DNA of 64,000 bases from Bacteroidetes bacterium GWC2_46_850 (GCA_001768325.1 MENQ01000004.1:14058-78057); one strand, 5' to 3'; counted from the stretch's first letter, positions 5,512-50,060 are shown. Translations and numbers: made by a program. Notes: generated by a model not told the origin, from the letters alone.

Positions 5512-5567
5512 GTCCCAAACCGCTGAATGTATAATAATTGCTCCTAAAAAGCTGATCGCTGAACGCT
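5512..5567 (-). repeat. intergenic repeat family, copy E (diverged, inverted relative to flanking genes)
   Basis: The reverse complement reads AGCGTTCAGCGATCAGCTTTTTAGGAGCAATTATTATACATTCAGCGGTTTGGGAC. It shares TTCAG-GATCAGCTTT at the head with copy A, and 13/13 nt of CAGCGGTTTGGGA at the tail. Confidence 0.5.
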
Positions 5568-5580
5568 AAAAATTTAAATA

Positions 5581-6207
5581 ATGAAACTACAAGACCTGAC
5601 CCTCAAACAATTTCTTGAAAAGACCGCTGCAAACGAAGCGTTACCTGGCGGTGGCAGCAGTGCCGCACTGAGTGCCGCCCTTGCTACGGCACTCACCGAG
5701 ATGGTGGCCGGCCTGACCATCGGAAAGAAAAAATATGTTGCCGTAGAAGAGCGAATGAAACAGATAGCCGCTGAGATGTCCGCCAACAGGGTTCATCTGG
5801 TGAACGACATTGACCGTGACGCGGATGCATACCGGTTGGTGATGGACGCGTACCGGATGCCGAAAGAAACGGAAGCAGAGATCGCCTTGCGCGAAGAAAA
5901 GATTGAGGAAGCCACAAAAATCGCTTCCCTGGTACCGATGGAAGTGGCGGAACGGACATACAGTCTGCTCGATACCATGAGTGAAGTACTGGAGACCGGA
6001 AACCGGAACGCGGTGACCGACGGCCTGGTCGGCCTGATGATCTGCCGCACCGCCATCATGGGGGCACTGCTCAATGTGCGTACCAACCTGGGAGGCATCC
6101 GCGACAAGGCGTTTGTTGTTGAAATGAGTGCAAAATGCGACACAATGGAAAAGGATACACTTGAAAAGGAGAGGCACGCAATACAATGGGTGAAGACAAT
6201 TCTTTGA
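5581..6207 (+). CDS. formimidoyltetrahydrofolate cyclodeaminase (FTCD C-terminal-type, stand-alone)
   Basis: 208 aa with the N-terminal ...FLEKTAANEALPGGGSSAALSAALATAL... motif typical of the cyclodeaminase/cyclohydrolase family. hut context. Confidence 0.85.
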   Translation: MKLQDLTLKQFLEKTAANEALPGGGSSAALSAALATALTEMVAGLTIGKKKYVAVEERMKQIAAEMSANRVHLVNDIDRDADAYRLVMDAYRMPKETEAEIALREEKIEEATKIASLVPMEVAERTYSLLDTMSEVLETGNRNAVTDGLVGLMICRTAIMGALLNVRTNLGGIRDKAFVVEMSAKCDTMEKDTLEKERHAIQWVKTIL

Positions 6208-6287
6208 ATGAAACAGATGCAATGCATGAAAAGGACGAAATAATCATTTTCACACTAGAGCATGATTAAATAAATAATTTTAATCGT

Positions 6288-7787
6288 ATGAAAAACATAT
6301 ACTATATCGGTCAGCGTGACCTGACCATCGATGATCTGGAGTGGATCATCAACGAGAACATCAGGGTGGAGTTGTCACCCGAAGCCAGGGAGCGGATTCA
6401 AAAGTGCCGCGACTACCTGGACCGGAAGATGGAAACACAGCAGGAACCTATCTACGGTATCACTACAGGCTTTGGATCGCTCTGCGAACGACCGGTCTCC
6501 ATTGAAGATCTGAGCACCTTGCAGGAGAACCTGGTGAAGTCACACGCCTGCAGCGTGGGTGAGGAGGTGGCGCCGCTCATCGTCAAGCTGATGTTCCTGC
6601 TCAAGGCCCATGCCCTCTCGCTGGGCTACAGCGGCGTGCAGGTGGCCACCGTACAGCGGATGCTCGACCTGTTCAACAACGACATCCTGCCTATCGTTTA
6701 CGACAAGGGGTCGCTGGGTGCCTCGGGCGACCTGGCACCGCTGGCCAATCTCTTCCTGCCGCTGATTGGGGTGGGGGACGTGTTTTACAAAGGCCAGAAA
6801 CGGGATATCGGCGACGTGCTGGATGAGTTTGGCTGGAAACCTATCCGGTTGAAAAGCAAGGAGGGGCTTGCCCTGCTCAACGGTACCCAGTTCATGTCGG
6901 CACATGGTGTCTTTGCCATCATGAAGGGCCAACGTCTCTCAAAGCGGGCCGACCTGATTGCGGCGCTTTCACTCGATGCCTACGACGGCCACCTGGAGCC
7001 ATTCGACGAACGGCTCCACCTGATCCGTCCCCACGCGGGACAGTTGGAGACAAGCCGGAATATCCGCAGTATCCTGGAAGGGAGCGAGCTGATATCCCGC
7101 AAGAAAGAGCATCTGCAGGATCCTTATTCCTTTCGTTGTGTGCCGCAGGTGCATGGCGCCACCAAAGATGCCATCGGCTATGTGCGGCAGGTGGTGGTAA
7201 CCGAGATCAACTCGGTGACCGACAACCCTACCATCTTTCCAGATGATGACGTGATCATCTCAGGGGGAAACTTCCACGGGCAGCCCCTGGCCATCGCCTT
7301 CGACTTCCTGGCTATCGCTCTGGCAGAGCTGGGTAATATCTCGGAACGACGCACGGCGCAGCTGATCCTCGGCAAGCGGGGTCTGCCGGAGTTTCTGGTG
7401 GCCAACCCCGGCCTCAACTCGGGCTTCATGATTCCACAGTATGTGGCAGCCTCGGTGGTGAGCCAGAACAAGATGTACTGCTACGCTGCCAGCAGCGACT
7501 CCATCGTCTCCTCCAACGGGCAGGAAGATCATGTGAGCATGGGCGCCACGTCGGCCATCAAGCTGATTAAGGTGATGGACAACCTCGATACCATTCTCTC
7601 CATTGAGCTGATGAACGGCGTGCAGGCACTCGAATTTCGTCGCCCCCTGCGCTCATCGCCCTTGATCGAAAAGGTGGTGAAAAAATATCGCAAAGAGGTT
7701 CCGTTTATCGATGAGGACATCGTCATGTATAAGGAGATCCGTAAAACGGTGGCATTTCTGAACAGACTGCATGCGGATGTAGACTGA
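6288..7787 (+). CDS. hutH: histidine ammonia-lyase
   Basis: 499 aa containing GSLGASGDLAPLA, which holds the Ala-Ser-Gly triad that forms the MIO cofactor. Confidence 0.95.
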   Translation: MKNIYYIGQRDLTIDDLEWIINENIRVELSPEARERIQKCRDYLDRKMETQQEPIYGITTGFGSLCERPVSIEDLSTLQENLVKSHACSVGEEVAPLIVKLMFLLKAHALSLGYSGVQVATVQRMLDLFNNDILPIVYDKGSLGASGDLAPLANLFLPLIGVGDVFYKGQKRDIGDVLDEFGWKPIRLKSKEGLALLNGTQFMSAHGVFAIMKGQRLSKRADLIAALSLDAYDGHLEPFDERLHLIRPHAGQLETSRNIRSILEGSELISRKKEHLQDPYSFRCVPQVHGATKDAIGYVRQVVVTEINSVTDNPTIFPDDDVIISGGNFHGQPLAIAFDFLAIALAELGNISERRTAQLILGKRGLPEFLVANPGLNSGFMIPQYVAASVVSQNKMYCYAASSDSIVSSNGQEDHVSMGATSAIKLIKVMDNLDTILSIELMNGVQALEFRRPLRSSPLIEKVVKKYRKEVPFIDEDIVMYKEIRKTVAFLNRLHADVD

Positions 7788-7834
7788 CATCTGATAAAAT
7801 GGAATTATTTTCCAAATAAATGGTGCAGATTGTT

Positions 7835-7842
7835 TATCTTTG
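7835..7842 (+). promoter_or_regulatory. -7 promoter box TATCTTTG upstream of the MFS gene
   Basis: Exact TAnnTTTG match 40 nt upstream of ATG 7882. Confidence 0.45.
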
Positions 7843-7881
7843 CAAATCTGAAATAAATCAATAACAGTTAAATATATTCTC

Positions 7882-9264
7882 ATGACAGAAGCAATAAGGA
7901 AATCGTTGCGGGACTCTCCGGCAGCGCGTTGGACTGCATTGTTCATTGTTTCGTTTACAATGATGTGCGGCTATTTTTTAACCGATATCATGGCGCCGCT
8001 GGCAGGATTACTGGAAGGCCAGCTAGGGTGGTCGCGTGCTGAATATGGCACATTCACAAGCTCTTACGGTTGGTTTAATGTTTTCCTGCTGATGCTGATC
8101 TTCGGCGGGATCATCCTCGACAAGCTGGGTGTGCGCATCACCGGGGTAGGTGCAGCCGCTGTGATGGTAGTCGGTGCCGCAATAAAGTACTGGGCCGTCT
8201 CTGATGGAGCATTGCGGGGACAGACACTTTTCGGTCTTGATGCGCAGGTATTCTGGGCCAGCATCGGCTTTGCTACTTTTGCCGTGGGTGTGGAGGTTGC
8301 CGGCATCACAGTCTCAAAGATTATCGTCAAATGGTTCAAAGGCAAGGAACTTGCTACTGCCATGGGTATGCAGGTCGCCATGGCCAGGATAGGTACTGCG
8401 CTGGCGTTGGGCTTTTCTGTCCCAATAGCCAAAGCAATGGGTGTGATCGATGTCTCCCGTCCGCTGTTGATCGCGCTGATAGGTCTCTGTATTGGCCTGA
8501 TCGCTTTCTTTGTCTATGTGGTAATGGACAGGAAACTCGATGCTTCTGAAGCTGCCATCACAGTGGAGGAGAAGAATCCGGAAGATGAATTCAAACTGTC
8601 GGATATCGGCAAGATCCTGGGTAACAGGGGCTGGTGGTATATTGCCATTCTATGTGTACTCTTCTACTCGGCTGTGTTTCCCTTTTTGAAATATGCTACG
8701 GACCTGATGGTGAATAAATTCGGTGTGAAAGAAGACCTCGCCGGTTTAATACCGATGTTGTTGCCGTTTGGAAATATTCTGCTGACACCCTTTTTCGGAG
8801 GTATTTACGACAAAAAAGGAAAAGGGGCAACCATCATGATCATCGGTGCCATCCTTTTAATTATCGTACACGCGCTTTTTTCTGTGCCGGTTTTTCATAG
8901 CTGGATCTTTGCGATGGTACTCGTCGTATTCCTGGGTATTGCCTTCTCGTTGGTGCCTTCGGCTATGTGGCCTTCAGTGCCCAAGATTGTACCGGAGAAG
9001 CGACTGGGAACTGCCTACTCGCTGATCTTCTGGGTACAGAACTGGGGACTTATGGGTGTGCCTCTGCTGATTGGCTGGGTGTTGGAGAAGTACTGCGTTA
9101 CGGGACAAACGGTGCGCGACGGGCTGACCGTCAACACCTACGATTACACCCTGCCGATGTTGATCTTTACAAGCTTCGGCGTGCTGGCTCTGATTTTTGC
9201 ATTCCTGCTGAAAGCGGAGGACAAAAGAAAAGGATACGGGTTGGAATTGCCGAATATACAGTAA
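7882..9264 (+). CDS. MFS transporter (substrate unknown; adjacent to hut operon)
   Basis: 460 aa with about 12 hydrophobic segments and a central charged loop (DRKLDASEAAITVEEKNPEDEFK), the typical MFS architecture. Confidence 0.8.
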   Translation: MTEAIRKSLRDSPAARWTALFIVSFTMMCGYFLTDIMAPLAGLLEGQLGWSRAEYGTFTSSYGWFNVFLLMLIFGGIILDKLGVRITGVGAAAVMVVGAAIKYWAVSDGALRGQTLFGLDAQVFWASIGFATFAVGVEVAGITVSKIIVKWFKGKELATAMGMQVAMARIGTALALGFSVPIAKAMGVIDVSRPLLIALIGLCIGLIAFFVYVVMDRKLDASEAAITVEEKNPEDEFKLSDIGKILGNRGWWYIAILCVLFYSAVFPFLKYATDLMVNKFGVKEDLAGLIPMLLPFGNILLTPFFGGIYDKKGKGATIMIIGAILLIIVHALFSVPVFHSWIFAMVLVVFLGIAFSLVPSAMWPSVPKIVPEKRLGTAYSLIFWVQNWGLMGVPLLIGWVLEKYCVTGQTVRDGLTVNTYDYTLPMLIFTSFGVLALIFAFLLKAEDKRKGYGLELPNIQ

Positions 9265-9270
9265 TCAGGT

Positions 9271-9330
9271 GGATTCAGGAATCAGCTTTCAGCTTGGGTA
9301 GTGAAAGGTTATTTGACAGCGGTTTGGGAG
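9271..9330 (+). repeat. intergenic repeat family, copy A
   Basis: GGATTCAGGAATCAGCTTTCAGCTTGGGTAGTGAAAGGTTATTTGACAGCGGTTTGGGAG. It fills almost the whole 67-nt spacer between the convergent MFS and VIT genes and starts 6 nt after the MFS stop. Confidence 0.75.
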
Positions 9331-9331
9331 A

Positions 9332-10045
9332 TTATACATTTACACCAAAAAGATAGCCCACAAGAGCAGATAATCCCATTGCCACGGTACCCCATATCAC
9401 AATCCGGAACACACCCTTCATGATCTGAGAACCTCCTGTTTTGGCAGATACCGCTCCCAGTACGGCAAGCGCTACAATTGTAAAGGCGTACAGAGAGTAA
9501 ACCATATTGGATATAGGGGTAAACAATACAACCAATAGAGGCAGTATTCCTCCTACGAGAAAAGAGGCACAGGAAGCCAGGGCAGCCTGAACAGGATTGG
9601 CCTGGCTCATTTCGTTGATGCCCAGTTCGTCTCTCACATGAGCGCTCAGCGCATCTTTTTCCGTCAATTCTTTGGCAACCAACATGGCTGTTTCTTTTTG
9701 TAGGCCGCGGCGCTCATATATTTCCGATAAAATCTTCAATTCTACATCGGGCATAGCTTCTAATTCCTGCCTCTCTCTTTCGATATCCGATTTTTCGATA
9801 TCCGTTTGTGAACTGACTGATACATACTCACCGGCAGCCATTGAAATTGCACCGGCAACCAAACCGGCGACAGTCGCCAGTAAGATAGGAGCTCTTTCTG
9901 AATTTGCAGCTGCCACACCAATGGCAAGACTTGAAATTGAAATTATTCCGTCATTTGCACCTAACACTGAAGCCCTAAGCCAGTTACTGCGACCTATGAA
10001 ATGGTTGTCTAAATAGTTGTCAATGGTAATTGATTTACTTCTCAT
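9332..10045 (-). CDS. VIT1/CCC1-family iron/manganese transporter
   Basis: 237 aa with NWLRASVLGANDGIISISSLAIGVAAA, an acidic central helix region and C-terminal transmembrane helices. Confidence 0.85.
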   Translation of the reverse strand: MRSKSITIDNYLDNHFIGRSNWLRASVLGANDGIISISSLAIGVAAANSERAPILLATVAGLVAGAISMAAGEYVSVSSQTDIEKSDIERERQELEAMPDVELKILSEIYERRGLQKETAMLVAKELTEKDALSAHVRDELGINEMSQANPVQAALASCASFLVGGILPLLVVLFTPISNMVYSLYAFTIVALAVLGAVSAKTGGSQIMKGVFRIVIWGTVAMGLSALVGYLFGVNV

Positions 10046-10096
10046 TGTCTATTATTTTCTTTTAATATTTTAATTGTCAGTATTCTAATCTTTTTT

Positions 10097-10753
10097 TTAT
10101 AACGGAATCAGGTATGCCGCGTAGATATGGCATGCCAATCCCAGCAGTACGAAGATATGAAAAATGGCATGGACAAACTCCCGCCTGGCTGTAGCATAGA
10201 TTACAGCACCGGCAATATAGAAAACTCCGCCTGCAATCAGCCAGATTACCGTATCCATGGTATCCTGTGCCCGAGCAACCCCAATCAATGGCTTAAAGGC
10301 GATCAGCACAATCAGTCCCATCAGAACATATGAGGAAGTCTTCAGATGGCTGTTTCGCTTCAGTGGGCGGAAGCTGATGATGATTCCGACGAGTGCGATG
10401 AACCAGACCAGCATAAAAATAAACCACCCCCAGAAAGGAATATCGCGTAACAGGATGAGCGTGAAGGGAGAATAGCTGGCTGCAATGAGCAGGTAGATGC
10501 TTGCGTGGTCGAAATGGCGTAGCTTTGACTTAAGCATTGGCTCCTGCACATAATGATAGACTGTGGATGAGCTCATGCATGCGATCATCCCGAAACCAAA
10601 AAGAGCATACCCCAGCAGGGCAGTGTCGTTGTCCGTCGCCAACGCACGGCTTAGCAGCAGCACCGTCGCTGCTACGCTCATCAGCGCGCCAAAACCGTGA
10701 GTCAGGTAGTTGATGCGCTCCTCACGCGATGTATAGAATTTATTTTTTGACAT
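10097..10753 (-). CDS. hemolysin III / PAQR-family membrane protein
   Basis: 218 aa with 7 transmembrane segments, an N-terminal SREERINYLTHGFG motif and C-terminal HxxxH-like histidines (HAIFHIFV). Its start codon overlaps the stop of the upstream anti-sigma gene (TAATG). Confidence 0.85.
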   Translation of the reverse strand: MSKNKFYTSREERINYLTHGFGALMSVAATVLLLSRALATDNDTALLGYALFGFGMIACMSSSTVYHYVQEPMLKSKLRHFDHASIYLLIAASYSPFTLILLRDIPFWGWFIFMLVWFIALVGIIISFRPLKRNSHLKTSSYVLMGLIVLIAFKPLIGVARAQDTMDTVIWLIAGGVFYIAGAVIYATARREFVHAIFHIFVLLGLACHIYAAYLIPL

Positions 10754-11919
10754 TACAATTCAATTTTCAACGTTACTTTCCGGTTTCCTTCCGACCATGG
10801 CGGCGAACCGAGTAGCAACCTTTTGATTTCAGTCTCCATTGCAGGACAGGAGTTCTCTTTAATTTGCACATTTAGCGGATGTCCATCGCTGTCAATGAAA
10901 AACGTTACAATAAATGATACAGGTTGTTCTTTGCAGATTTTTTCATCATAATTTTCCCTGAAATAACCGATAAATTCTTCTTTGTCGAAAACAGCTCGGT
11001 TTGTATTTGTTGTCGTGGAATCAACATTTTCGTGGGAACCTGTTTTCTCAGTAGAACCTATTCCTGTAACGGAACCCACTACGCTGCTCTTTTTCTGAGT
11101 TCCGAAACCCACAACAATCACTTCATTCAGTGCCATATCATCGGATTTCAGTGTAATATCACCCATATTTTCCTTCACCGGAATTTCCTGCGGTTTCATT
11201 CCAATAAATGAAGCCAACAGCGTAGAATCTGCATTGGCAGGGATATTTAAGTTGAATTTACCGTCCATATCAGACACTGTACCCAGATTGCTGTTCCTCA
11301 ATTGAATAGTGGCTCCGATAATCGGTTCACCTGTCTCGTCCACCACACGTCCGCTCGCCAGCAATGCCATGTCTGTCTCCTTCAAACCTTCGGGAATCGA
11401 TTTCTCTGTCACATTCTGCGATACTGCTGCCATCTGTACTTTCTCGTTCACGATGATCTGCATGACCGTATCGTCCGAAACGATCCTTTCTTTCCTGGCG
11501 GCCGACGGAAGAACAACGGGAGGCTGTTGTACGGGATTCTTCTCCACGACACCCGGATCTTTTGGTGCGGCAGTAGGAGTAACCTCTTTCACCTGTGGAT
11601 TATTTCCGGTTGTTGCAACCACAATTTCCTCTTTCGCTCCGGGGGAAAGCAGCAAAAGGGGAATCCCGACAAGAAGTATCAACACCGCTGCGGCACCCCA
11701 TATCCAGAGAGATTTGTGAATCCGTTTTTGGTTTGGCTGAACACTTTTTTCCAGCTTTTCAATGACAGAAGAGTGATCACCCTCCACCGAATCATAACCA
11801 TCGATGGCGTCACGCAGGAAAGGATCGTCCATCGTCTGACGTTCCAGTCGGTTGGCTTTCTTTCCGTGTCTTTGTCCCTGTATATACTCTTTCAAGCTTT
11901 CCTCTTCTGTCCTGTTCAT
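10753..11919 (-). CDS. putative ECF anti-sigma factor: cytoplasmic N-domain, 1 TM, SusC-type N-terminal-extension-like domain, TonB-box-like strand, TonB-C-like domain
   Basis: 388 aa. Its ATG overlaps the sigma factor stop (ATGA). It has an N-terminal DDPFLRDAIDGY motif and one transmembrane segment (LWIWGAAAVLILLVGIPLLLL). Residues ~188-262 (GRVVDETGEPIIGATIQLRNSNLGTVSDMDGKF...) resemble the carboxypeptidase-regulatory-like domain. NEVIVVGFGTQKK follows. The C-terminal ~75 aa (FIGYF...VSFIVTFFIDSDGHPLNVQI...PPWSEG...) show a TonB C-terminal-like pattern. Confidence 0.6.
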   Translation of the reverse strand: MNRTEEESLKEYIQGQRHGKKANRLERQTMDDPFLRDAIDGYDSVEGDHSSVIEKLEKSVQPNQKRIHKSLWIWGAAAVLILLVGIPLLLLSPGAKEEIVVATTGNNPQVKEVTPTAAPKDPGVVEKNPVQQPPVVLPSAARKERIVSDDTVMQIIVNEKVQMAAVSQNVTEKSIPEGLKETDMALLASGRVVDETGEPIIGATIQLRNSNLGTVSDMDGKFNLNIPANADSTLLASFIGMKPQEIPVKENMGDITLKSDDMALNEVIVVGFGTQKKSSVVGSVTGIGSTEKTGSHENVDSTTTNTNRAVFDKEEFIGYFRENYDEKICKEQPVSFIVTFFIDSDGHPLNVQIKENSCPAMETEIKRLLLGSPPWSEGNRKVTLKIEL

Positions 11920-12533
11920 TGCTTCGGTGCATATACGTGATGTAATTCGTCCCGGTCAGGTAGAGTTTTCAATATCCGGCTGACACAATTTTTCAAATTC
12001 CTTTTCCCGTTCTGAATGTAACTTTTTACTTTTGCAAGTGTGAACCCCGTCAAAGAAACAATGTCAGCGTATGATTTATCCTGATAGTAAAAATACTCGA
12101 TACTTTTCCGTTGTTCCACACTCAGCTCATTCATACAAACGATCAATGCCGATGCCTCTTCTTCGTTAGATTGACCGCTATCCAATAGAGTAAAAAAACT
12201 GCCGTTTTCCATAATATCCTCTCCACATAAAACAAAGAAAGTCTTGTTTTCTTTTTTTATACGCTGCAGGCAATGGTTTTTGGCAACGGTATAGAGCCAT
12301 GTATGAAAATTTTGTATCTCGTATTGTTTTATCTTTTGCGAAACTTCTTCGAACAAATCCATTACTGCATCTTCTGCATCAGCCCTGTTGGCAAGGTATT
12401 TCAGACACAATCCGTATACCATTGGAATATAGCGCCGGTATAACTCGCCGAAGAAGACCATCTGTTTTTCCTTTTTACAAAGTTCAAACAATGCGTTATC
12501 CGATAATTTTGATATGTCGGGTTTGTTAATCAA
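11916..12533 (-). CDS. RNA polymerase ECF-type sigma-70 factor
   Basis: 205 aa with region 2 (FGELYRRYIPMVYGLCLKYL...DAEDAVMDLF...HTWLYTVAKN) and region 4 (LSVEQRKSIEYFYYQDKSYADIVSLTGFTLAKVKSYIQNGKRNLK). The most upstream start is a TTG, so the exact start is uncertain. Confidence 0.85.
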   Translation of the reverse strand: MINKPDISKLSDNALFELCKKEKQMVFFGELYRRYIPMVYGLCLKYLANRADAEDAVMDLFEEVSQKIKQYEIQNFHTWLYTVAKNHCLQRIKKENKTFFVLCGEDIMENGSFFTLLDSGQSNEEEASALIVCMNELSVEQRKSIEYFYYQDKSYADIVSLTGFTLAKVKSYIQNGKRNLKNCVSRILKTLPDRDELHHVYAPKQ

Positions 12534-12656
12534 TCTGTTGCGCGAATATACTGGTAATCTCGTCTTACAAAATTAAAAAATTATTCGTTTGCTTATGGAA
12601 TTTGGGTTGTTTTTGTATCTATCATACAAAACATCATAATATAAAAAATAAATCGT

Positions 12657-14501
12657 ATGAAAACAACAATGCAAAGAGTCAGTCTATTTTTGATTACGAT
12701 GCTGCTGACAGTATCCGTTTATGGACAGCAGATTGAAGTGAGCGGAAAGGTATTTAATGAAGAGAAGCAGCCGATCATCGGTGCGACCATCATGAATAAA
12801 GTTACCCGCGACGGAACAGTCAGCGATATAGACGGAAAATTTCGTATCAAAACGAAGATTGGAGATACACTGGTCTTTATGTTTATCGGATATATGGCCC
12901 GTGAAATCGAAGTGAACAAAGCACAGCTTGATGTCTATATGAAGCCCGACCTTCGGTTGATGGAGGAGGTCACAGTGGTGGCCTTTGGAAATCAGAAACG
13001 GGCAAATGTCGTGGGTGCCGCCACTCAACGGGTAATCACAGTAAATGATTGGTCACACAGGCTGCCAATGCAACCTCAAAATTCAGAGGAGTACGAACCA
13101 TTCAGAGAAAATCGTTTTTTTTCAGTAAATAAAAATCCATTGTCCACCTTTTCGCTGGATGTGGATGCGGCGTCTTACGGTAACATTCGCCGGATGATTA
13201 ACCAGGGACAAATGCCAGAAAAAGATGCTGTGCGGGTGGAGGAGATGATCAATTATTTTAACTACGATTATCCACAGCCGAAGGATGGTCAACCGGTAAG
13301 TATCGTAGCCGAAACCGCCGGATGCCCCTGGAACCGGAATACACAGCTGGTACGCATTGGCATAAAGACAAAGGAGATCCCTTCGGAAATGCTTCCGGCA
13401 GGAAATTTTGTTTTCCTGATTGATGTGTCCGGGTCAATGATGGATGCCAATAAGCTCCCTTTGGTTAAAGCATCTATGAAGCTCCTGGTGAACAACCTGC
13501 GACCGAAAGACCGTGTGGCAATCGTCACCTATGCCGGTGCAGCGGGTGAAGTATTGCCTTCGACAAGCGGCGCCGACAAGCAAAAGATAACGGAAGCGCT
13601 GGATAATCTCCAGGCCGGAGGTACCACTGCGGGTGGTGCCGGCATCCAGCTGGCCTATAAAATAGCTGAAAAGAACCTGGTGAAAGGAGGCAATAACCGG
13701 GTGATTCTTTGTACTGATGGCGATTTTAATGTGGGTGTTTCCTCAACCGAAGGACTCGAGTCGTTGATTGAGCAAAAGCGTCAGTCGGGCATTTACTTGA
13801 CTGTGCTGGGTTATGGAATGGGAAATTACAAGGACAACAAACTACAGACGCTCGCACAAAAGGGCAATGGGAATCATGCCTATATCGATAACCTGCAGGA
13901 AGCCAATAAAGTGTTGGTTAACGAGTTTGGCAGTACGATGGCTGTCGTGGCCAAGGATGTAAAGCTCCAGGTGGAGTTCAATCCAATTTTTGTGAATGCC
14001 TACCGTTTGATTGGCTATGAATCGCGATTGCTGGAAGATGAAGATTTCAACGACGACACCAAGGATGCTGGTGAGCTTGGACCCGGACATACCGTTACGG
14101 CGCTTTATGAAATTGTTCCAGTGGGAGTTGATATTCCTGTTGGAAAAGTGGATCCATTGAAATATCAGCAACAGAAAACCGAACGTTTACCGTCCAAATT
14201 CAGCAATACCAAAGAGTTGTTAACCGTGAAGCTGCGCTATAAAAAGCCAGGTGAAGACATAAGCAGGAAGCTCGAGGTGCCCGTGCCTGCTTCGAAAACG
14301 AATCGGATGGCATCACCTGACTTCAATTTTGTGATGGCTGTCGCCATGTTCGGGCAGTTGCTGCGTGATTCAGATTATAAAGGAGACGGCACTTACAAGG
14401 ATGTGGTCGAGCTGGCCCTTAAGGGACTGGATAACGATCCCCATGGTTACCGACGCGAATTTATCCGTTTGGTGGAAGCGGTTCAACAACTGGAGATGTG
14501 A
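12657..14501 (+). CDS. secreted von Willebrand factor type A protein (YfbK-like) with SusC-type N-terminal module
   Basis: 614 aa with a signal peptide (LLTVSVYG/QQ). Residues ~26-120 form a CarboxypepD_reg-like domain followed by EEVTVVAFGNQKR. Next comes the vWA N-terminal region (PLSTFSLDVDAASYGN). The MIDAS motif is present (FLIDVSGSM ... GGTTAGGAG ... CTDGDFNVG). The C-terminus is DUF3520-like. Confidence 0.85.
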   Translation: MKTTMQRVSLFLITMLLTVSVYGQQIEVSGKVFNEEKQPIIGATIMNKVTRDGTVSDIDGKFRIKTKIGDTLVFMFIGYMAREIEVNKAQLDVYMKPDLRLMEEVTVVAFGNQKRANVVGAATQRVITVNDWSHRLPMQPQNSEEYEPFRENRFFSVNKNPLSTFSLDVDAASYGNIRRMINQGQMPEKDAVRVEEMINYFNYDYPQPKDGQPVSIVAETAGCPWNRNTQLVRIGIKTKEIPSEMLPAGNFVFLIDVSGSMMDANKLPLVKASMKLLVNNLRPKDRVAIVTYAGAAGEVLPSTSGADKQKITEALDNLQAGGTTAGGAGIQLAYKIAEKNLVKGGNNRVILCTDGDFNVGVSSTEGLESLIEQKRQSGIYLTVLGYGMGNYKDNKLQTLAQKGNGNHAYIDNLQEANKVLVNEFGSTMAVVAKDVKLQVEFNPIFVNAYRLIGYESRLLEDEDFNDDTKDAGELGPGHTVTALYEIVPVGVDIPVGKVDPLKYQQQKTERLPSKFSNTKELLTVKLRYKKPGEDISRKLEVPVPASKTNRMASPDFNFVMAVAMFGQLLRDSDYKGDGTYKDVVELALKGLDNDPHGYRREFIRLVEAVQQLEM

Positions 14502-14555
14502 TCGTTCAATTCCCGTAATAAATGTTTTAGCAGATAAATATTAAAACAGATTGAC

Positions 14556-16043
14556 ATGAGAGGTGATGTAATGTGGTACAGGATTATACTGGTCAAGCTT
14601 TTGTTACTGACAGTCCTGCATATTACCGGCATAAAAGCACAGCAAACAGAGCACAGGGTGACAGGTACGGTGATGGACCAGTCGGGTGAGACGTTTCCGG
14701 GTACGACGGTTATTGTGAAAGGAACTGTACAGGGGACCGTGACTGATATGGATGGAAGGTACGTTATTGCCGTACCAAAAGATGCTATTCTTCAATTTTC
14801 TTTCGTTGGCATGGAGAACCGGGAAATTGCAGTTGAGGGCCGCCAGAGGATCGACGTGGTGATGGAAGACAACATTTCAGAAGGAATAATGCCTGCGAAA
14901 CCGATCCTGTTGACTCCGAAGCAGCGCGAGAAGGCAGAGGCCGACAACAGGTTTTCGTTTAACGTTTTCTTGGAAATCTCAAGGTTGCAAGGACCCAATG
15001 CATTTTTTTCTCCTATAAGTCTTAATATGGCTCTCGGGACTCTCTACAACGGTTCTTCGGGTGATACCCGTACAGAAATGAACCAGATTTGGGGTATCAC
15101 TAACTTTTCAGAATCCGAACTTAACGACTATTATCGAACCATAAACCGGAGATTATTGGAAGCAGATCGGTTCACGGATATTGCTATCGCCAATTCCATC
15201 TGGTATCGTAGTGATTTTTCAATCAAAGAAGCGTTTAAAGAAACCAGTAAGAGATATTTTGATACGGATATAAAAGCGCTCGATTTCAATGATTCCAATG
15301 CGGCCAATGTTATCAACAAATGGTGCCTTGATAAAACAAATGGCAAGATCAATCATATTGCTGCCACTCCGATGCCAGGAGATATGATGATGTATCTGGC
15401 AAATGCCATCTATTTCAAGAGTAAATGGCAGATGGAGAAAAGGTTCAGGAAAGAGCAAACAAAACCGGACGATTTTATTCAGTCCGACGGCAAAACATTG
15501 AGGGTGGAGATGATGGAACAAACCACCTCCCTGCCTTATTATAGCGACTCATATCTTCAATGTGTTGAATTACCATATGGGAACGGAGCGTACAGCATGA
15601 TGGCAGTTCTTCCACCCGACAATGAAAATATCAGTCAACTGATTGAATACCTGAGTAGTGCTCATTGGGAGCGTATTGTCAATCAGATGAAGAGTGAACG
15701 AGTATGGTTGAAATTACCCCGTTTAAGGATAGAATGCAATATACCTTTCAATCAGCCATTGAAAAATGTGGGGATGCAAAAAATTTTCAGCGGAGGTTTC
15801 GCACATCTTTCAGATGATGCTTTCAATGTCTCCAATATTAGACAGAAAGCATTTATAGAAGTGAATGAAGAGGGTACAGAGGTTGCCGCTGTTACATCCA
15901 TGATGATAGTGGGTTACGGAGTTATGAAGACATCGAATGAACCCGTCCACTTTTTTGCCAATCGCCCGTTTATGCTGCTGATCAGGGAGAAAAGTACAGG
16001 GGTAATACTCTTTATTGGCAGAATTGATGATCCCCGCAGTTAA
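14556..16043 (+). CDS. secreted serpin with N-terminal CarboxypepD_reg-like domain
   Basis: 495 aa with a signal peptide (ITGIKA/QQ). Residues ~34-104 read VTGTVMDQSGETFPGTTVIVKGTVQGTVTDMDGRY... The serpin core carries the canonical hinge and reactive-centre loop, FIEVNEEGTEVAAVTS...PVHFFANRPFMLLIRE. Confidence 0.85.
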   Translation: MRGDVMWYRIILVKLLLLTVLHITGIKAQQTEHRVTGTVMDQSGETFPGTTVIVKGTVQGTVTDMDGRYVIAVPKDAILQFSFVGMENREIAVEGRQRIDVVMEDNISEGIMPAKPILLTPKQREKAEADNRFSFNVFLEISRLQGPNAFFSPISLNMALGTLYNGSSGDTRTEMNQIWGITNFSESELNDYYRTINRRLLEADRFTDIAIANSIWYRSDFSIKEAFKETSKRYFDTDIKALDFNDSNAANVINKWCLDKTNGKINHIAATPMPGDMMMYLANAIYFKSKWQMEKRFRKEQTKPDDFIQSDGKTLRVEMMEQTTSLPYYSDSYLQCVELPYGNGAYSMMAVLPPDNENISQLIEYLSSAHWERIVNQMKSERVWLKLPRLRIECNIPFNQPLKNVGMQKIFSGGFAHLSDDAFNVSNIRQKAFIEVNEEGTEVAAVTSMMIVGYGVMKTSNEPVHFFANRPFMLLIREKSTGVILFIGRIDDPRS

Positions 16044-18886: not shown

Positions 18887-18900
18887 CCGTTGCCCACCAA

Positions 18901-18960
18901 CTTCGGAACCGCTGCCCTTGGCAACATTCCATTACCGGAGCTGACTCCTGACTCCTGACC
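18901..18960 (-). repeat. intergenic repeat family, copy D
   Basis: The reverse complement reads GGTCAGGAGTCAGGAGTCAGCTCCGGTAATGGAATGTTGCCAAGGGCAGCGGTTCCGAAG. It lies in the 80-nt spacer between convergent clpB and trkH, is oriented with trkH, and starts 6 nt after the trkH stop. Confidence 0.7.
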
Positions 18961-18966
18961 TCTTCT

Positions 18967-20433: not shown

Positions 20434-20495
20434 GTTTCATCCCTTTATGCCACGGCTATTAAATGGCTGTTATACGATGAGGTGACGCTTTTCTG

Positions 20496-21833: not shown

Positions 21834-21861
21834 CGAAGTGGATATTGGTTATTTCTTTCTG

Positions 21862-23823: not shown

Positions 23824-23876
23824 ATTGAACCCCCTTGTCCATGTATAACGACAGCGGTGTAAAATAGTTTATCCCA

Positions 23877-31755: not shown

Positions 31756-32351
31756 ACAAAGTGACTTCAGCCATTTCAAAGACAAAAAATAATTTAATTG
31801 ACGTAGCCCGGCAGCTTTTCGCTAAAAAAGGTGTCGAGAATACGACGATGAACGATATTGCCGAAGCGTCCCAGCGGGGTAGACGTACCCTGTACACCTA
31901 TTTTAGCAGTAAAAATGAGATTTATAAAGCCGTTATCGAGTCGGAACTCAATGTGCTGTATGGTAGGCTGGAGGAGGTTACCCATCGCGATATTCCTGCA
32001 GACGAGAAACTTATCCTGCTTGCTTTTACCCGTTTAAATGCCATCAAGGAGGTGGTTACGCGCAACGGTACCCTCCGGGCCGATTTTTTCAGGGATATCT
32101 GGAAAGTGGAAAATGTACGTAAAGAGTTCGACAAGAAAGAGATACACTATCTGGAGACCATTATCCGGGATGGGTGCGACAAGGGAATCTTTCGGCTCAA
32201 GGATATCAGACAAACAGCCGAAATATTGCATTATGCATTCAAGGGGCTCGAGGTACCCACCATCCGTGGTGCAATGAAACTAGACTACAATAAAAAGGAA
32301 GACCGGGAGATTATTTCTGGTATTTTGTTCAAAGGGTTGTATGCGAAATAG
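31749..32351 (+). CDS. TetR/AcrR-family transcriptional regulator
   Basis: 200 aa with an N-terminal HTH (LIDVARQLFAKKGVENTTMNDIAEASQRGRRTLYTYF). The start is a GTG at 31749 or 31761 and is uncertain. Confidence 0.85.
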   Translation: MQNKVTSAISKTKNNLIDVARQLFAKKGVENTTMNDIAEASQRGRRTLYTYFSSKNEIYKAVIESELNVLYGRLEEVTHRDIPADEKLILLAFTRLNAIKEVVTRNGTLRADFFRDIWKVENVRKEFDKKEIHYLETIIRDGCDKGIFRLKDIRQTAEILHYAFKGLEVPTIRGAMKLDYNKKEDREIISGILFKGLYAK

Positions 32352-32413
32352 GATTCAGGTGTCAGCTATCAGCTTTGGTAGTGGAAGGTTGTGATATAGA
32401 GCGGTTACTAGGA
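32351..32413 (+). repeat. intergenic repeat family, copy B
   Basis: GGATTCAGGTGTCAGCTATCAGCTTTGGTAGTGGAAGGTTGTGATATAGAGCGGTTACTAGGA. Its first G is the last base of the TetR TAG stop codon. Confidence 0.75.
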
Positions 32414-32461
32414 TAAAAATTGGAGATAAGTTGAAATTATTATAGTATTAAAAATAATTGT

Positions 32462-45617: not shown

Positions 45618-46703
45618 ATGCACAGATACAAACCGGTGCGGTTGATCCTTGAAAACGGGACGGTTTTTCACGGACAATCGTTTGGAGCCGAAAAGGCAAC
45701 ATCGGGAGAGGTCGTTTTCAGTACAGCAATGGTCGGTTATCCCGAAAGTCTGACAGACCCCTCCTACGAAGGACAGATTTTAACACTCACATATCCCATC
45801 ATCGGAAATTACGGAGTTCCCGCACAAAGCGAAACAGACGGAATTTCCGATTTTTTTGAGTCCGCACGGATCCATGCCGCCGGCCTCATCGTACAGGATT
45901 ATTGCGACGATTACTCACACTGGAATGCGCAGGAGAGTCTGAGCGACTGGCTGCGACAGAACGGAGTCCCCGGCATCTCCGGCATTGATACCCGACAGCT
46001 CACAAAGGTATTGCGGGAAAAAGGATCCATGCTGGGAAAGATTGTCTTTGAGGAAGAGGATGAAATTGATTTTTACGATCCGGAAAGCGAAAACCTGGTT
46101 GCAAGGGTAAGTTGCAAAGAGCCGGTAGAGTATGGATATGGGGATAAGAAAGTAGTACTGATCGATTGTGGTGCGAAGTTGAATATCGTACGCGAGCTGA
46201 TCAAACGAAATATACATCTGGTCAGGGTGCCCTGGGATTATGATTTTTCAGGGATCGATTACGACGGGCTCTTTATCTCCAATGGACCGGGAAATCCCGG
46301 CTACTGTGAAGTCACCGTGGAGCATATCCGGGAGGCGATGCAGCGGAATAAACCGATCTTTGGCATCTGTATGGGAAACCAGTTGCTGGCCAAGGCAGCA
46401 GGGGCAAACACCTACAAGCTGAAATACGGACACCGCAGCCACAATCAGCCCGTGCGAAGAGTAGGAGGCAGCTCATGCTTTATTACTTCGCAAAATCACG
46501 GTTATGCGGTGGATGAATCACTCCTGGGTGACGAATGGGAACCCTGGTTTATCAATATGAACGACGGCACCAATGAAGGAATCCGGCACAAAACAAAACC
46601 GTTTTTTTCGGTACAGTTTCACCCGGAGGCAACGGGTGGACCGACCGATACACGGTTTTTCTTTGATGAATTTGTGAAGTCAGTAATCAGTAATCAATCG
46701 TAG
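45618..46703 (+). CDS. carA: carbamoyl-phosphate synthase small (glutaminase) subunit
   Basis: 361 aa. The class-I amidotransferase nucleophile is in GICMGNQLL, and the His-Glu pair is in FSVQFHPEA. Confidence 0.95.
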   Translation: MHRYKPVRLILENGTVFHGQSFGAEKATSGEVVFSTAMVGYPESLTDPSYEGQILTLTYPIIGNYGVPAQSETDGISDFFESARIHAAGLIVQDYCDDYSHWNAQESLSDWLRQNGVPGISGIDTRQLTKVLREKGSMLGKIVFEEEDEIDFYDPESENLVARVSCKEPVEYGYGDKKVVLIDCGAKLNIVRELIKRNIHLVRVPWDYDFSGIDYDGLFISNGPGNPGYCEVTVEHIREAMQRNKPIFGICMGNQLLAKAAGANTYKLKYGHRSHNQPVRRVGGSSCFITSQNHGYAVDESLLGDEWEPWFINMNDGTNEGIRHKTKPFFSVQFHPEATGGPTDTRFFFDEFVKSVISNQS

Positions 46704-46712
46704 TAGAATAAT

Positions 46713-49700
46713 ATGACAGATCAAATAACAGGAATAAAAAACAGAGAGCCAAATAGCATGCCGAACGTCAGGAAGGTACTTCTTTTGGGATCAGGTGCTC
46801 TCAAGATCGGCGAGGCTGGAGAGTTCGATTATTCCGGTTCTCAGGCATTGAAAGCACTGCGCGAGGAGGGAGCAGAGACGATCCTGATCAACCCGAATAT
46901 CGCCACGGTGCAAACCTCCGAAGGGGTAGCCGATAAAATATACTTTCTGCCGGTCACTCCCTATTTCGTGGAGAAGGTGATTGCCCGTGAACGGCCCGAC
47001 GGCATCATGCTCGCCTTTGGCGGACAGACGGCATTAAACTGTGGGGTTGCTCTTTATCAGTCGGGTGTGTTTGAAAAATATAACCTGCAGGTGTTGGGAA
47101 CACCCGTGCAGGCGATCATGGATACCGAAGACCGGGAGCTGTTTGTGAAGAAACTCGATCAGATCGACGTAAAGACCATCCAAAGCTTTGCCGTCTCTAC
47201 CCTTGACGATGCGTTACAGGCTGCCGGCAGGTTGGGTTACCCCATCATCGTGCGGGCTGCCTATGCACTGGGCGGACTCGGGTCGGGTTTCTGTAACGAT
47301 GAATCGGAGCTGCAAACGCTCGCAGGTAAGGCTTTTAACTACTCAGACCAGCTGTTGATTGAAAAGTCGTTGAAAGGTTGGAAGGAGATTGAATATGAGG
47401 TGGTGCGTGACCGGTACGACAACTGTATCACGGTCTGTAACATGGAAAACTTCGATCCGCTGGGTATCCATACCGGAGAGAGCATTGTGGTGGCTCCCTC
47501 GCAGACGCTCACCAACTCGGAATATCACAAGCTGCGAGAGCTGGCCATTCAGATTGTCCGTCACATCGGTATCGTGGGTGAGTGTAACGTACAGTATGCT
47601 TTTGACCCGGAGTCGGAAGATTACCGCGTGATAGAGGTGAATGCCCGCCTGAGCCGTTCTTCGGCACTGGCTTCCAAGGCAACCGGATATCCATTGGCCT
47701 TTGTCGCGGCCAAACTCGGATTGGGATACGGACTCTTCGACCTGAAAAATTCGGTTACAAAATCGACCAGCGCCTTCTTTGAGCCGGCGCTCGACTATAT
47801 CGTGGTGAAGATACCCCGATGGGATCTGGGTAAGTTCAGCGGCGTCTCCAAAGAGATCGGTTCCAGCATGAAGTCGGTCGGTGAGATCATGGCCATCGGC
47901 CGCACCTTTGAAGAGGCCATCCAAAAAGGGCTTCGCATGATCGGACTGGGCATGCATGGCTTCGTGGAGAACAAGGAACTTATCATCGATGACATCGACA
48001 AAGCACTCAGGGAGCCGACAGATCAGCGCATTTTCGTAATCAGCAAGGCTTTCCGCAAAGGATATACGGTGGATCAGATTCATGAACTGACAAAGATAGA
48101 CCGCTGGTTTCTTCATAAACTCTACCGGATTGTGCTGACCGCCGAAACACTGGAAGGATACACACCTTCTTCGTTAGATTTTGAAAAAAACGGGAATAGC
48201 GGTTTTGACGAAATACTGAAGAGAGCCAAGCAACAGGGTTTCTCTGATTTTCAGATTGCCAGGGCCCTCTGGAAAGATCAGGTAGACGATGCGGCACCGG
48301 CAATCATTCGCACTTACAGAAAGAAAAGGGGGATACGGCCGGTGGTAAAACAGATCGACACGCTGGCAGCAGAATATCCCGCACAGACAAACTATCTTTA
48401 TCTCACCTATAACGGGTCGGAGAACGACGTGCAGTACCTGGGCGACCACCGCTCGGTGATCGTACTGGGGTCGGGAGCTTACCGCATCGGCTCGTCGGTG
48501 GAGTTCGACTGGTGTTCGGTAAATGCACTGAACACGGTTCGCAAAGAAGGATATCGTTCGGTAATGATCAACTACAACCCGGAGACGGTGTCGACTGATT
48601 ATGATATGTGCGACCGGCTCTACTTCGATGAGCTGACGTACGAGCGGGTGATGGACATCATTGAACTGGAGAACCCGCATGGCGTAATTGTCTCCGTGGG
48701 GGGGCAGATACCCAACAACCTGGCTGTGAGGTTGGATGAGTCTGGAGTAAATATACTGGGGACATCTGCCAAAAGCATTGATAATGCCGAGGACCGGCAT
48801 AAGTTTTCCTCCATGCTTGACAGGCTGGGAATAGACCAGCCGAGATGGAGGGAGCTGACCACACTCGGTGAAATTCATCATTTCGCCAATGAGGTGGGTT
48901 TTCCGCTACTGGTAAGACCTTCCTACGTGCTCTCCGGAGCAGCAATGAACGTCTGTTCAAACAATAGTGAACTGGAACGTTTCCTGACTCTTGCCACCGA
49001 GGTTTCAAGCAGGTATCCGGTGGTCGTCTCCGAATTTATTGAAGAATCAAAGGAAATTGAGATGGATGCCGTCGCACAGAACGGAGAGCTGGTGGCATAT
49101 GCCATATCGGAGCATGTGGAATTCGCGGGAGTACACTCCGGCGATGCCACCATTCTGTTTCCTGCTCAGAAAATTTATGTGCAGACCGCCCGCAGAATTA
49201 AGCAGATCACACGGCAGATCGCCAAAGCATTGAATATTACAGGTCCGTTCAACATTCAGTTCCTGGCAAAAGACAATGACATCAAGGTGATAGAATGTAA
49301 CCTGAGAGCATCGAGATCATTTCCATTCGTGTCTAAAATACTGAAAATAAATTTTATAGAGCTCGCAGCAAAAGTGATGCTTGAAGTTCCGGTTGAAAAA
49401 CCTGAAAAATCGGCGTTCGAGCTCGACTATGTGGGAATAAAAGCATCGCAGTTTTCCTTCACCAGGCTGCAGAAGGCCGATCCGGTGCTGGGCGTGGATA
49501 TGGCTTCTACCGGTGAGGTGGGTGCCATTGGGAACCATTTCGACGATGCTTTACTCACGTCGATGCTGGCAGTGGGCTATCGCGTCCCCGAAAAAAACAT
49601 CATGATATCCTCCGGCGGAACGAAATCGAAGGTAGACCTGCTCGATCCGTGCCGGCTTTTGCAGAAAAACGGATATGCATTGTATGCCACTGGCGGGACA

Positions 49701-49997
49701 CAAAAGTTTCTGGAAGAAAACGGCGTGAACAGTACCTTTGTGGCATGGCCCGATGATGAGCATGCCACGCTGAAGGTAAACGACATGATTGCAGAAAGAA
49801 AATTCGACCTGATTATCAACATCCCGAAGAATCTGACAGAGCGGGAGCTGACCAACGGTTACCGGATTCGTCGTGGTGCCATCGATTACAACATCCCGCT
49901 CATCACCAATGCCCGGTTGGCAAGCGCTTTCATCAAAGCCTTCTGCAGGATCACACGCGATGACATAGAGATTAAACATTGGGAAGAATATAATTAA
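46713..49997 (+). CDS. carB: carbamoyl-phosphate synthase large subunit, paralog 1
   Basis: 1094 aa with two ATP-grasp halves, an oligomerisation domain and an MGS-like allosteric domain. It has a 15-aa N-terminal extension relative to paralog 2. The alternative start ATG 46758 (MPNVRKVLLLGSG) may be the real one. Confidence 0.93.
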   Translation: MTDQITGIKNREPNSMPNVRKVLLLGSGALKIGEAGEFDYSGSQALKALREEGAETILINPNIATVQTSEGVADKIYFLPVTPYFVEKVIARERPDGIMLAFGGQTALNCGVALYQSGVFEKYNLQVLGTPVQAIMDTEDRELFVKKLDQIDVKTIQSFAVSTLDDALQAAGRLGYPIIVRAAYALGGLGSGFCNDESELQTLAGKAFNYSDQLLIEKSLKGWKEIEYEVVRDRYDNCITVCNMENFDPLGIHTGESIVVAPSQTLTNSEYHKLRELAIQIVRHIGIVGECNVQYAFDPESEDYRVIEVNARLSRSSALASKATGYPLAFVAAKLGLGYGLFDLKNSVTKSTSAFFEPALDYIVVKIPRWDLGKFSGVSKEIGSSMKSVGEIMAIGRTFEEAIQKGLRMIGLGMHGFVENKELIIDDIDKALREPTDQRIFVISKAFRKGYTVDQIHELTKIDRWFLHKLYRIVLTAETLEGYTPSSLDFEKNGNSGFDEILKRAKQQGFSDFQIARALWKDQVDDAAPAIIRTYRKKRGIRPVVKQIDTLAAEYPAQTNYLYLTYNGSENDVQYLGDHRSVIVLGSGAYRIGSSVEFDWCSVNALNTVRKEGYRSVMINYNPETVSTDYDMCDRLYFDELTYERVMDIIELENPHGVIVSVGGQIPNNLAVRLDESGVNILGTSAKSIDNAEDRHKFSSMLDRLGIDQPRWRELTTLGEIHHFANEVGFPLLVRPSYVLSGAAMNVCSNNSELERFLTLATEVSSRYPVVVSEFIEESKEIEMDAVAQNGELVAYAISEHVEFAGVHSGDATILFPAQKIYVQTARRIKQITRQIAKALNITGPFNIQFLAKDNDIKVIECNLRASRSFPFVSKILKINFIELAAKVMLEVPVEKPEKSAFELDYVGIKASQFSFTRLQKADPVLGVDMASTGEVGAIGNHFDDALLTSMLAVGYRVPEKNIMISSGGTKSKVDLLDPCRLLQKNGYALYATGGTQKFLEENGVNSTFVAWPDDEHATLKVNDMIAERKFDLIINIPKNLTERELTNGYRIRRGAIDYNIPLITNARLASAFIKAFCRITRDDIEIKHWEEYN

Positions 49998-50000
49998 TGA

Positions 50001-50060
50001 GGAGTCAGGAATCAGCTGTGAGCTTCGGTAGTAAAAAGTTGTCACCGGCAGCCATTAGCA
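50001..50060 (+). repeat. intergenic repeat family, copy C
   Basis: GGAGTCAGGAATCAGCTGTGAGCTTCGGTAGTAAAAAGTTGTCACCGGCAGCCATTAGCA. It starts 3 nt after the carB paralog 1 stop. Confidence 0.75.

Follow-up and report, generated by a model that had tools for sequence, protein, structure and literature searches.

A modular heptamer-array repeat at gene boundaries in a few Proteiniphilum-like Bacteroidetes genomes

The DNA described here is a 64,000-nt stretch from Bacteroidetes bacterium GWC2_46_850 (GCA_001768325.1, MENQ01000004.1:14058-78057), called the window below; all coordinates are those of the whole window, and L-numbers, such as L026, denote loci taken from other genomes. Its genes include an MFS gene convergent with a VIT gene, trkH convergent with clpB, a TetR gene, an FTCD_C gene and, between 45618 and 53316, carA with two full-length carB paralogues in tandem behind it (46713-49997 and 50104-53316). 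The paralogues are 70-81% identical at the DNA level, in stretches paired by repeat search, and the spacer between them consists of a short repeat that recurs at other gene boundaries of the window. A first-pass annotation had listed five copies of this repeat, A to E, as sequences of about 60 nt following stop codons. The repeat is modular, its 5' part being a tandem array of 7-nt units, a feature overlooked in that annotation.

The architecture of the repeat is derived from about 55 copies printed with their flanks. Each copy consists of a variable-number array of TCAGSNN heptamers (TCAGGAT, TCAGGAA, TCAGCTA, TCAGCTG, TCAGCGA and similar units), a 23-nt core, a heptamer-like box (CAGCGGT) and an optional tail. 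The array has 3-24 units and nearly always ends in TCAGCTT. The cores can be aligned gap-free, and their variation is concentrated in an 8-nt block lying between conserved blocks. In type 1 copies, the core comprises CGGTAGTGGAAnGTTGT and the variable block, and is followed by CAGCGGT and then usually TTGG. In type 2 copies, which include copy E, the core is of equal length and G-poor (TTTAGGAGCAAT...). The tail, when present, starts with GCAAGTAATTGGCACAT and continues as tandem 8-mers that reach the next start codon, as in copy C. The forward strand is rich in G (33%) and poor in C (14%), and the forward heptamers are free of stop codons in all frames. TCAGCNN accounts for half of the units, and conservation is lacking at the GG columns of the core.

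Membership of the copies in one family is supported in several ways. A hidden Markov model (HMM) built from copies A-D and used with nhmmer gives each of them E = 1e-17 to 1e-19 in the window; this scoring is partly circular, and about 45 further copies are found by the same HMM in other genomes. A de novo repeat search groups copies A, B and C as one direct-repeat family, D7 (85-88% identity over 40 nt). The motif TCAGGNNTCAGCT occurs seven times in the window against 0.96 expected, a number reached in 0 of 100 shuffles. The sequence blocks that the first-pass annotation had described as shared are correct by reading and alignment of the copies, as is its 13/13 match between A and E (CAGCGGTTTGGGA). 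Copy E, which had been called more diverged, is a genuine member, but it is of the G-poor type 2, scores only E = 0.99 with the A-D model, and adjoins a start codon in antisense rather than following a stop. One decayed copy, at 46677-46712, had been missed. Conversely, a fragment suggested at 16055-16135 is not among the nhmmer matches at E <= 100, and the tail-like sequence noticed at 53317-53355 resembles the tail module weakly, as judged by eye and without statistical support. The copies and their parts are as follows.

9265..9331 (+): copy A, type 1, filling the spacer up to the VIT stop at 9332
9265-9295 (+): heptamers of copy A, TCAGGTG-GAT-TCAGGAA-TCAGCTT-TCAGCTT
9296-9331 (+): core of copy A and CAGCGGTTTGGGAG
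32348..32424 (+): copy B, type 1, with a conserved extension to 32424
32348-32375 (+): heptamers of copy B, ATAGGAT (containing the TAG stop of the TetR gene), TCAGGTG, TCAGCTA and TCAGCTT
up to 32413 (+): core of copy B and AGAGCGGT
49998..50103 (+): copy C, type 1 with a tail, between carB paralogue 1 and paralogue 2; the repeat proper is 49998-50060
49998-50025, 50026-50048 and 50049-50055 (+): heptamers, core and CAGCCAT box of copy C
up to 50103 (+): tail of copy C, GCAAGTAATTGGCATATTAGCATATT..., with short tandem 8-mers, reaching the carB2 ATG at 50104
18887..18966 (-): copy D, type 1, sense to trkH and antisense to clpB
18958-18938 (-): heptamers of copy D, TCAGGAG, TCAGGAG and TCAGCTC
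18937-18915, 18914-18908 and 18907-18887 (-): core, CAGCGGT box and tail of copy D
5498..5569 (-): copy E, type 2, antisense to both flanking genes
5569-5549 (-): heptamers of copy E, TTAGCGT, TCAGCGA and TCAGCTT, 11 nt from the ATG of the FTCD_C gene at 5581
5548-5526 and 5525-5519 (-): core of copy E, TTTAGGAGCAATTATTATACATT, and CAGCGGT box, followed by TTGGGA and two more units to 5498
46677..46712 (+): decayed copy inside the 3' end of carA, TCAGTAA TCAGTAA TCAATC GTAGTAGAATAAT
53317..53355 (-): candidate tail-module fragment, TTCATTGCCACATTAGTTCATTGGC, weak, directly after the stop of a minus-strand gene (53356..55011)

The decayed copy is recognized from an nhmmer match (E = 1.9, 46674-46708) and a tandem period of 7 found by TRF at 46680-46696, and the identity of carA was checked. 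The carA open reading frame (ORF) continues through its heptamers, and the GTAG box supplies the TAG stop (46701-46703). At copy A, the MFS gene has its final codon and TAA stop within the in-phase unit ACAGTAA (9258-9264). The tail of copy D ends against the clpB stop, which is TCAGTTG in reverse complement.

The heptamer end of the repeat abuts a gene boundary, type 1 copies lying in sense directly after a stop codon and type 2 copies in antisense just upstream of a start codon. In the window, the arrays of A-D start between -4 and +10 nt relative to the stop codon of the gene before them (MFS, TetR, carB1 and trkH, identified by both Pfam and synteny), and copies A and D fill the spacers of their convergent gene pairs (MFS/VIT and clpB/trkH), so that the placement first reported for these four copies is correct. 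The same bias is seen in a count over all loci, with window-orthologous ones excluded, gene boundaries taken from a simple in-house ORF caller and arrays counted if they lie within 30 nt of a boundary. Type 1 arrays adjoin a same-strand stop 19 times and an opposite-strand start once; type 2 arrays adjoin an opposite-strand start five times and a stop never. The distance from array to stop ranges from -11 to +17 nt. Among the stops adjacent to arrays, 15/24 are TAG, as against 33/189 for all ORFs, and the TAG is often in heptamer phase, as in ATAGGAT TCAGGTG of copy B. The C-terminus of the MFS protein is PNIQ* in element-bearing genomes, by way of the in-phase ACAGTAA, and PNIQR* in element-free relatives. 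These features suggest an intrusion of arrays into gene ends, with a heptamer unit often providing or seeding the stop codon.

The family is restricted to a few closely related Proteiniphilum-like/Dysgonomonadaceae metagenome genomes. A scan with the motif pattern of one genome per species (185,579 species) yields 23 stretches from four metagenome-assembled genomes (MAGs), namely Proteiniphilum sp. UBA4084, 'Porphyromonadaceae bacterium' bin.24, Bacteroidales UBA5762 and Proteiniphilum sp. 5_8_m_bin25. Over part of its length, the window is 99.6% identical to a bin.24 contig; identity to UBA4084 is about 93%. In a metagenome collection the core pattern is present in one further contig only, which has 12 copies over 16.7 kb. 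Viral contigs contain no match to the core pattern, and BLAST against phages also gives none. A plasmid origin was rejected, the sole plasmid match by BLAST being an unrelated microsatellite of Agrobacterium; this is a perfect (CAGCGAT)10 array in non-coding DNA of A. salinitolerans plasmid NZ_CP074400.1 (L033, 378237-378310). At the Rfam gathering threshold, only tRNA-Gln is found in the window, and three copy-rich loci have no Rfam match at E <= 1. A literature search on the heptamer and core strings and on Proteiniphilum repeats found nothing relevant, and the repeat is previously undescribed. Scaffold gaps (N runs) of UBA4084 lie inside heptamer arrays (L011:7430-7450, L014:2240-2250), and both RNA and DNA contigs tend to terminate at the repeat, evidently a point of breakage in short-read assemblies.

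Copies are gained, lost and replaced at syntenic sites, the insertions and deletions (indels) being bounded by TCAG and the arrays changing length in steps of 7 nt. This is evident from loci of graded relatives, located through their TrkH homologues. L027/L032, L028 and L029 (TrkH identity 84, 82 and 75%) have no copies in 21 kb each, and L026 (88%) has copies at A and E but none at D. Copy D is absent also from L031. L027 has a trkH/clpB spacer of 28 nt, and L026, L028, L029 and L031 have one of 14-15 nt, as against 80 nt in the window. At the empty sites the sequence is TCAGGAG|TCAGTTG (L026), TCAGCGA|TCAGTTG (L031) and TCAGCAA|TCAGTTT (L028), the second unit including the reverse complement of the clpB stop, and the window has a 65-nt insertion placed exactly between two such units. 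The TCAG heptamers that flank the insertion already exist as a pair in the empty sites; a target-site duplication at D is indistinguishable from microhomology.

The E, A and C sites vary as well. At the E site, L028 has a copy-free spacer of 66 nt, L026 a type 2 copy with an identical core, and UBA4084 a type 1 copy; a difference between type 1 and type 2 cores at orthologous sites is found also for L006:7095 and L008:1615. In metagenome contigs of related strains, the A spacer is replaced by 27 unrelated bases in one case and has extra heptamers in another, and the A array has three units in the window as against six in UBA4084. The C site shows an allele longer by 14 nt (two heptamers) and a 7-nt gap, and E is also variable. 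This is the behaviour of a recently expanded repeat turning over by recombination. Microhomology between arrays as the means of spread, expansion, deletion and core replacement is suggested by the core swaps, by array lengths that vary in 7-nt steps and by TCAG at the indel boundaries.

At the MFS/VIT junction, where the window has the element only, two element-free relatives have a textbook bidirectional hairpin terminator with a T-run.

L027:19760-19888: MFS/VIT terminator, AAAAGCGCTGCTCTGACGAGTAGCGCTTTTT
L028:15694-15803: MFS/VIT terminator, AAAAAGGCGCTACTTGTAAGAGAAGCGCCTTATT

In L026 (17100-17130) and UBA4084 (L005:4900-4930), the space between copy A and the VIT stop contains a separate 8-14 bp palindrome (GTAAGCTT...AAGCTTAC), composed of heptamer-like units with AGCT; the window does not have it.

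Orthologous copies are more conserved than the flanking synonymous sites in the case of B, D and E, and of A when L026 is compared with UBA4084. The mismatches expected were calculated from third-codon identity in 150 flanking codons.

B, window vs UBA4084: 0/56 mismatches, 6.4 expected, P = 0.0012
D, window vs bin.24: 0/46 mismatches, 13.9 expected, P = 7e-8
E, window vs L026: 0/37 mismatches, 8.6 expected, P = 5.5e-5
A, L026 vs UBA4084: 4/38 mismatches, 11.4 expected, P = 0.004
C, window vs UBA4084: 6/56 mismatches, 9.9 expected, P = 0.11

Copy B is thus identical to its UBA4084 orthologue but for one extra heptamer, while the remainder of the spacer has diverged. Copy D is identical in bin.24 despite a flanking third-codon identity of about 0.70. 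The window from 8004 to 23871 aligns to one bin.24 contig (L018/L010, JAJFTO010000019.1) with identities of 99.6% (8004-16002), 92% (clpB) and 82% (trkH side), and the change from 92% to 82% falls exactly at copy D. These steps could represent a recombination mosaic or a chimeric MAG contig.

Single copies of the repeat show no conserved fold, in agreement with the first-pass remark that no convincing conserved helix is present. A candidate core hairpin, GTTGYN-N3-NRCAGC, has 82.8% of its alignment cells paired, yet 34-36 of 500 shuffles do equally well and RNAalifold predicts no pairs in it; a second helix, CTTY/RAAG around GGTAGTG, shows no covariation. RNAalifold on 32 cores gives no consensus structure, and the fold z-scores of copies A-D on both strands (-1.3 to +1.0) are no better than those of shuffled sequences. 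The antisense RNA of copies A and B is C-rich and nearly unfolded (-2.3 to -4.8 kcal/mol). Inverted pairs of copies, on the other hand, fold into long imperfect hairpins (z = -3.35, -4.59 and -4.85). Some other candidate signals were considered and dropped. A Bacteroidetes promoter (TTTG / TAnnTTTG) has no consistent match, by eye, in type 2 copies, and a sigma-54-like TGGCAC in the tail has the wrong spacing. A G-quadruplex (GG every 7 nt) and a CsrA sponge (CAGGA units) were set aside in view of the TCAGCNN units and unconserved GG columns described above.

A terminator scan of window positions 1-20000 finds no G+C-rich hairpin with a U-run at copies A, D or E. The same scan does not bear out the claim that several other operon ends in the window have classical terminators, as its 14 sites (19.3 expected) all lie within ORFs. 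L028 has 24 terminator-like sites as against 14.9 expected, a contrast with the window that is only suggestive, since the scan misses long-loop hairpins. In UBA4084, a type 1 sense copy and its inverted partner make up almost the entire rpsJ-rplC (177 nt) and rpsN-rpsH (275 nt) spacers.

L020:4089-4270 and L004:2657-2936: ribosomal-operon pairs of UBA4084, forming long hairpins (z = -3.4 and -4.6)

Operons such as rpsJ/rplC, rpsN/rpsH and tandem carB are co-transcribed in bacteria generally. Sense copies are therefore unlikely to be strong terminators, given their location within rpsJ/rplC, rpsN/rpsH and carB1/carB2. Copy C itself is probably transcribed, as its core is present in RNA-derived contigs from three runs.

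How the repeat spreads and what keeps it can be answered only tentatively. In the reading that we favour, though its chances fall just short of even, it is a REP/BIME-like modular repeat of this clade, non-palindromic, subject to turnover by recombination or slippage in its heptamer arrays, co-transcribed as part of a 3' untranslated region (3'UTR) or as an intercistronic spacer, and under some constraint. No dedicated transposase would be needed for its spread and turnover, which would proceed through ectopic recombination, template switching or slippage between the arrays. Stop codons may seed the arrays, either as TAG on the same strand or as CTGA, which is TCAG on the other strand, and arrays would then intrude into gene ends until a stop is fixed by change of CAG to TAG. 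The forward RNA, which is G/U-rich, C-poor, unstructured and periodic in NAG-N4, may be retained because it binds a protein or modulates the 3' end, and not as a hairpin terminator, and inverted pairs of copies may act like BIME/REPIN hairpins.

Several points weigh against this reading. The proposed recombination mechanism is deduced from sequence patterns. A transposase acting in trans is possible, about 350 kb of element-bearing genomes having been read, and a binding protein for the repeat is not known. The RNA evidence consists of low-depth assembled contigs that break at repeats, to which DNA contamination may contribute, and the gene calls at the loci depend on an ORF heuristic. Conservation is missing in A when the window is compared with L026 and in L004 versus L013 beyond box 1, and that of C is marginal. 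Moreover, trkH of bin.24 is nearer to that of L026, which lacks D, than to that of the window, so that the identity of D could be due to lateral exchange or repeated insertion from the same donor, and not only to selection. Recent lateral exchange or gene conversion could similarly account for copy conservation in general.

The alternative that the repeat is purely selfish is unlikely but deserves to be taken seriously. It would be a non-autonomous element of the REPIN/MITE type, mobilised in trans, for example by a RAYT-like HUH transposase acting on single-stranded hairpins of inverted pairs. The single copies A-E would be decaying remnants, the orientation bias would reflect insertion-strand preference or purifying selection, and conservation would reflect recent spread. 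Clade-restricted expansion, presence or absence at syntenic sites, clusters of tandem and inverted copies, long hairpins from inverted pairs (z = -3.4 to -4.9), and a near-identical D in two genomes whose flanks differ by 13-16% are all consistent with such an element; the conserved GGTAGT box also recalls the GTAG of REPs. However, the unit has no palindrome and no terminal inverted repeats (TIRs), its ends being direct heptamer-like repeats; inverted-pair arms are often of different subtypes (type 1 with type 2); single copies make up 35 of the 43 clusters found with the type 1 model; and variation is confined mostly to the 8-nt block instead of being evenly spread. No transposase lies beside any copy in the loci read, where a handful of ORFs were checked against Pfam, and no match found connects the repeat to a known insertion sequence (IS) or MITE with TIRs. 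The description REP/MITE-like, offered in the first-pass annotation, holds in the broad sense that the family is clade-restricted, absent at orthologous sites, strain-polymorphic and clustered in tandem and inverted copies, but it does not extend to the palindrome of REPs or the TIRs of MITEs. It is quite improbable that array and core are a new kind of self-propagating gene-boundary module, one that spreads by recombination among its own arrays from stop-codon seeds, has assumed the part of hairpin terminators and 3'-end protectors in this clade, and is read in sense RNA or DNA by a multimeric protein recognizing NAG-N4 periodicity.

Three further readings fare less well. A factor-dependent, strand-specific terminator or insulator could have replaced intrinsic hairpins in this clade, either as a protein roadblock on the array or through Rho, loaded onto the unstructured, C-rich antisense RNA that convergent transcription yields. 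The replacement of the hairpin and T-run of the relatives by the element alone at MFS/VIT fits this idea, as do the position of A and D between convergent genes, the lack of classical terminators at gene ends in window 1-20000, the almost unfolded C-rich reverse-strand RNA and the G-over-C bias of the forward strand. The sense copies within the normally co-transcribed ribosomal and carB operons make it very doubtful all the same. An earlier suggestion of a protein-dependent termination or 3'UTR signal may hold, with indirect support from the strict sense orientation, conservation above the synonymous level and the displaced MFS/VIT hairpin; the sense copies of the ribosomal operons speak against a strong terminator. 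A DNA-level array of sites, serving as a Chi-like recombination hotspot or for binding of a nucleoid or replication protein, has only a slim chance of being correct. AGCGG is the Chi sequence of Bacillus subtilis, and the strong strand asymmetry, the shift of bin.24 identity exactly at D and the exchange of cores between copies are in keeping with this possibility. It requires orientation to follow replication rather than transcription, however, and copies of either orientation are found within 13 kb of the window (minus strand for E and D, plus strand for A), each following the local gene rather than a common direction. Finally, each copy might be an independently transcribed small RNA (sRNA) gene, or give rise to a 3'UTR-derived sRNA with the variable 8-nt block as seed. 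The conserved scaffold blocks around a locus-specific block that is kept between orthologues would suit such a role, but this idea, also raised in the first-pass annotation, is scarcely credible, as promoter-like and terminator-like signals, a conserved fold and an Rfam match are all lacking, and the copies overlap stop codons and fill spacers entirely.

Families with similar workings include BOX/SPRITE, REP/BIME and STRR (PMC3184786, PMC3049150, PMC3116915, PMC5088731). REP/BIME and the REPINs of Enterobacteria and Pseudomonas are likewise short, high-copy, intergenic and co-transcribed, and often lie just after a stop codon; they also occur as single, tandem and inverted-pair copies with mosaic organisation and lineage-specific expansion (PMC3184786, PMC3116915). 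The present family differs from REP/REPIN in having a unit without a palindrome or stem-loop, a variable heptamer array, no known RAYT and a strict sense orientation. Pneumococcal BOX is built of modules, among them internal subunits that vary in number; this modularity and the 3'-end bias resemble the heptamer family. Stable RNA structures are predicted for BOX and SPRITE, and SPRITE is terminator-like (Rho-independent), whereas single copies of the heptamer family are unfolded, and sequence and host phylum are unrelated. The cyanobacterial STRR are tandem 7-nt units in non-coding DNA whose copy number varies among strains, and were reportedly described as heptanucleotide repeats by Mazel et al. 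in 1990. STRR serve as a strain fingerprint (PMC5088731). The heptamer family is STRR-like in having head-to-tail 7-nt units, 3-24 per array, with a TRF period of 7 and alleles differing by 7 or 14 nt between strains. Unlike the present arrays, the STRR units are CCCCAGT and others, with no attached core and no reported rule of stop phase or orientation, and they belong to a different phylum.

MITEs such as Correia/NEMIS and Nezha are small, non-autonomous and near genes, and vary in presence between relatives (PMC3184786), as the heptamer family does; the latter lacks TIRs (left end TCAGSNN, right end CAGCGGT, which are direct repeats), a clear target-site duplication and a related IS element. 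In sense RNA the arrays are (U)CAG-N4 repeats and may be likened to HutP/TRAP sites. HutP recognizes NAG triplets 4 nt apart, with a period of 7. The HutP and TRAP sites are single regulatory sites in one operon leader and not a dispersed family, and the likeness is offered as an analogy only, homologues of HutP and TRAP not having been searched for. Integron attC sites were rejected, there being no inverted repeat and the flanks being syntenic core genes (trkH, clpB, carB, rpsJ) rather than cassettes; analogies to diversity-generating retroelements and CRISPR were dropped because of architecture and core-gene context. The family lies outside the defining criteria of REP, MITE, intrinsic terminator and every Rfam family.

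Dispersed intergenic repeats have been much studied in Proteobacteria, Firmicutes and cyanobacteria, and hardly in Bacteroidota. The present one departs from the textbook types in being free of palindromes and TIRs, in its built-in variable heptamer array, in its strict strand rule and in its link to TAG phase. If the mechanism proposed above is true, a microsatellite-like array can move a conserved core between gene ends without a transposase, and such insertions can take the place of classical terminators and even alter the final codons of genes. The conservation of single copies beyond the synonymous level is a concrete, testable hint of function, and the arrays may find use as strain markers.

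Some further features of these intergenic regions were seen. The tail 8-mers (ATTAGCAT, CACATCAT and ACATCATT) occur in variable number directly upstream of start codons (window 50065-50084; L008, L019, L024:4253, L025:2843), and are a second class of short tandem repeat in these regions. In L003, a small gene for a 23S rRNA intervening-sequence protein (1947-2315; PF05635, a bAvd-like four-helix bundle) lies between two direct-orientation type 1 copies, as if inserted into, or together with, the repeat. In the same locus, the leader of a GH92 glycoside hydrolase gene consists of a core-free array of 24 units in reverse orientation (3008-3175, CTGATAG...), which begins just downstream of a perfect Bacteroidetes -7 box (TATCTTTG).

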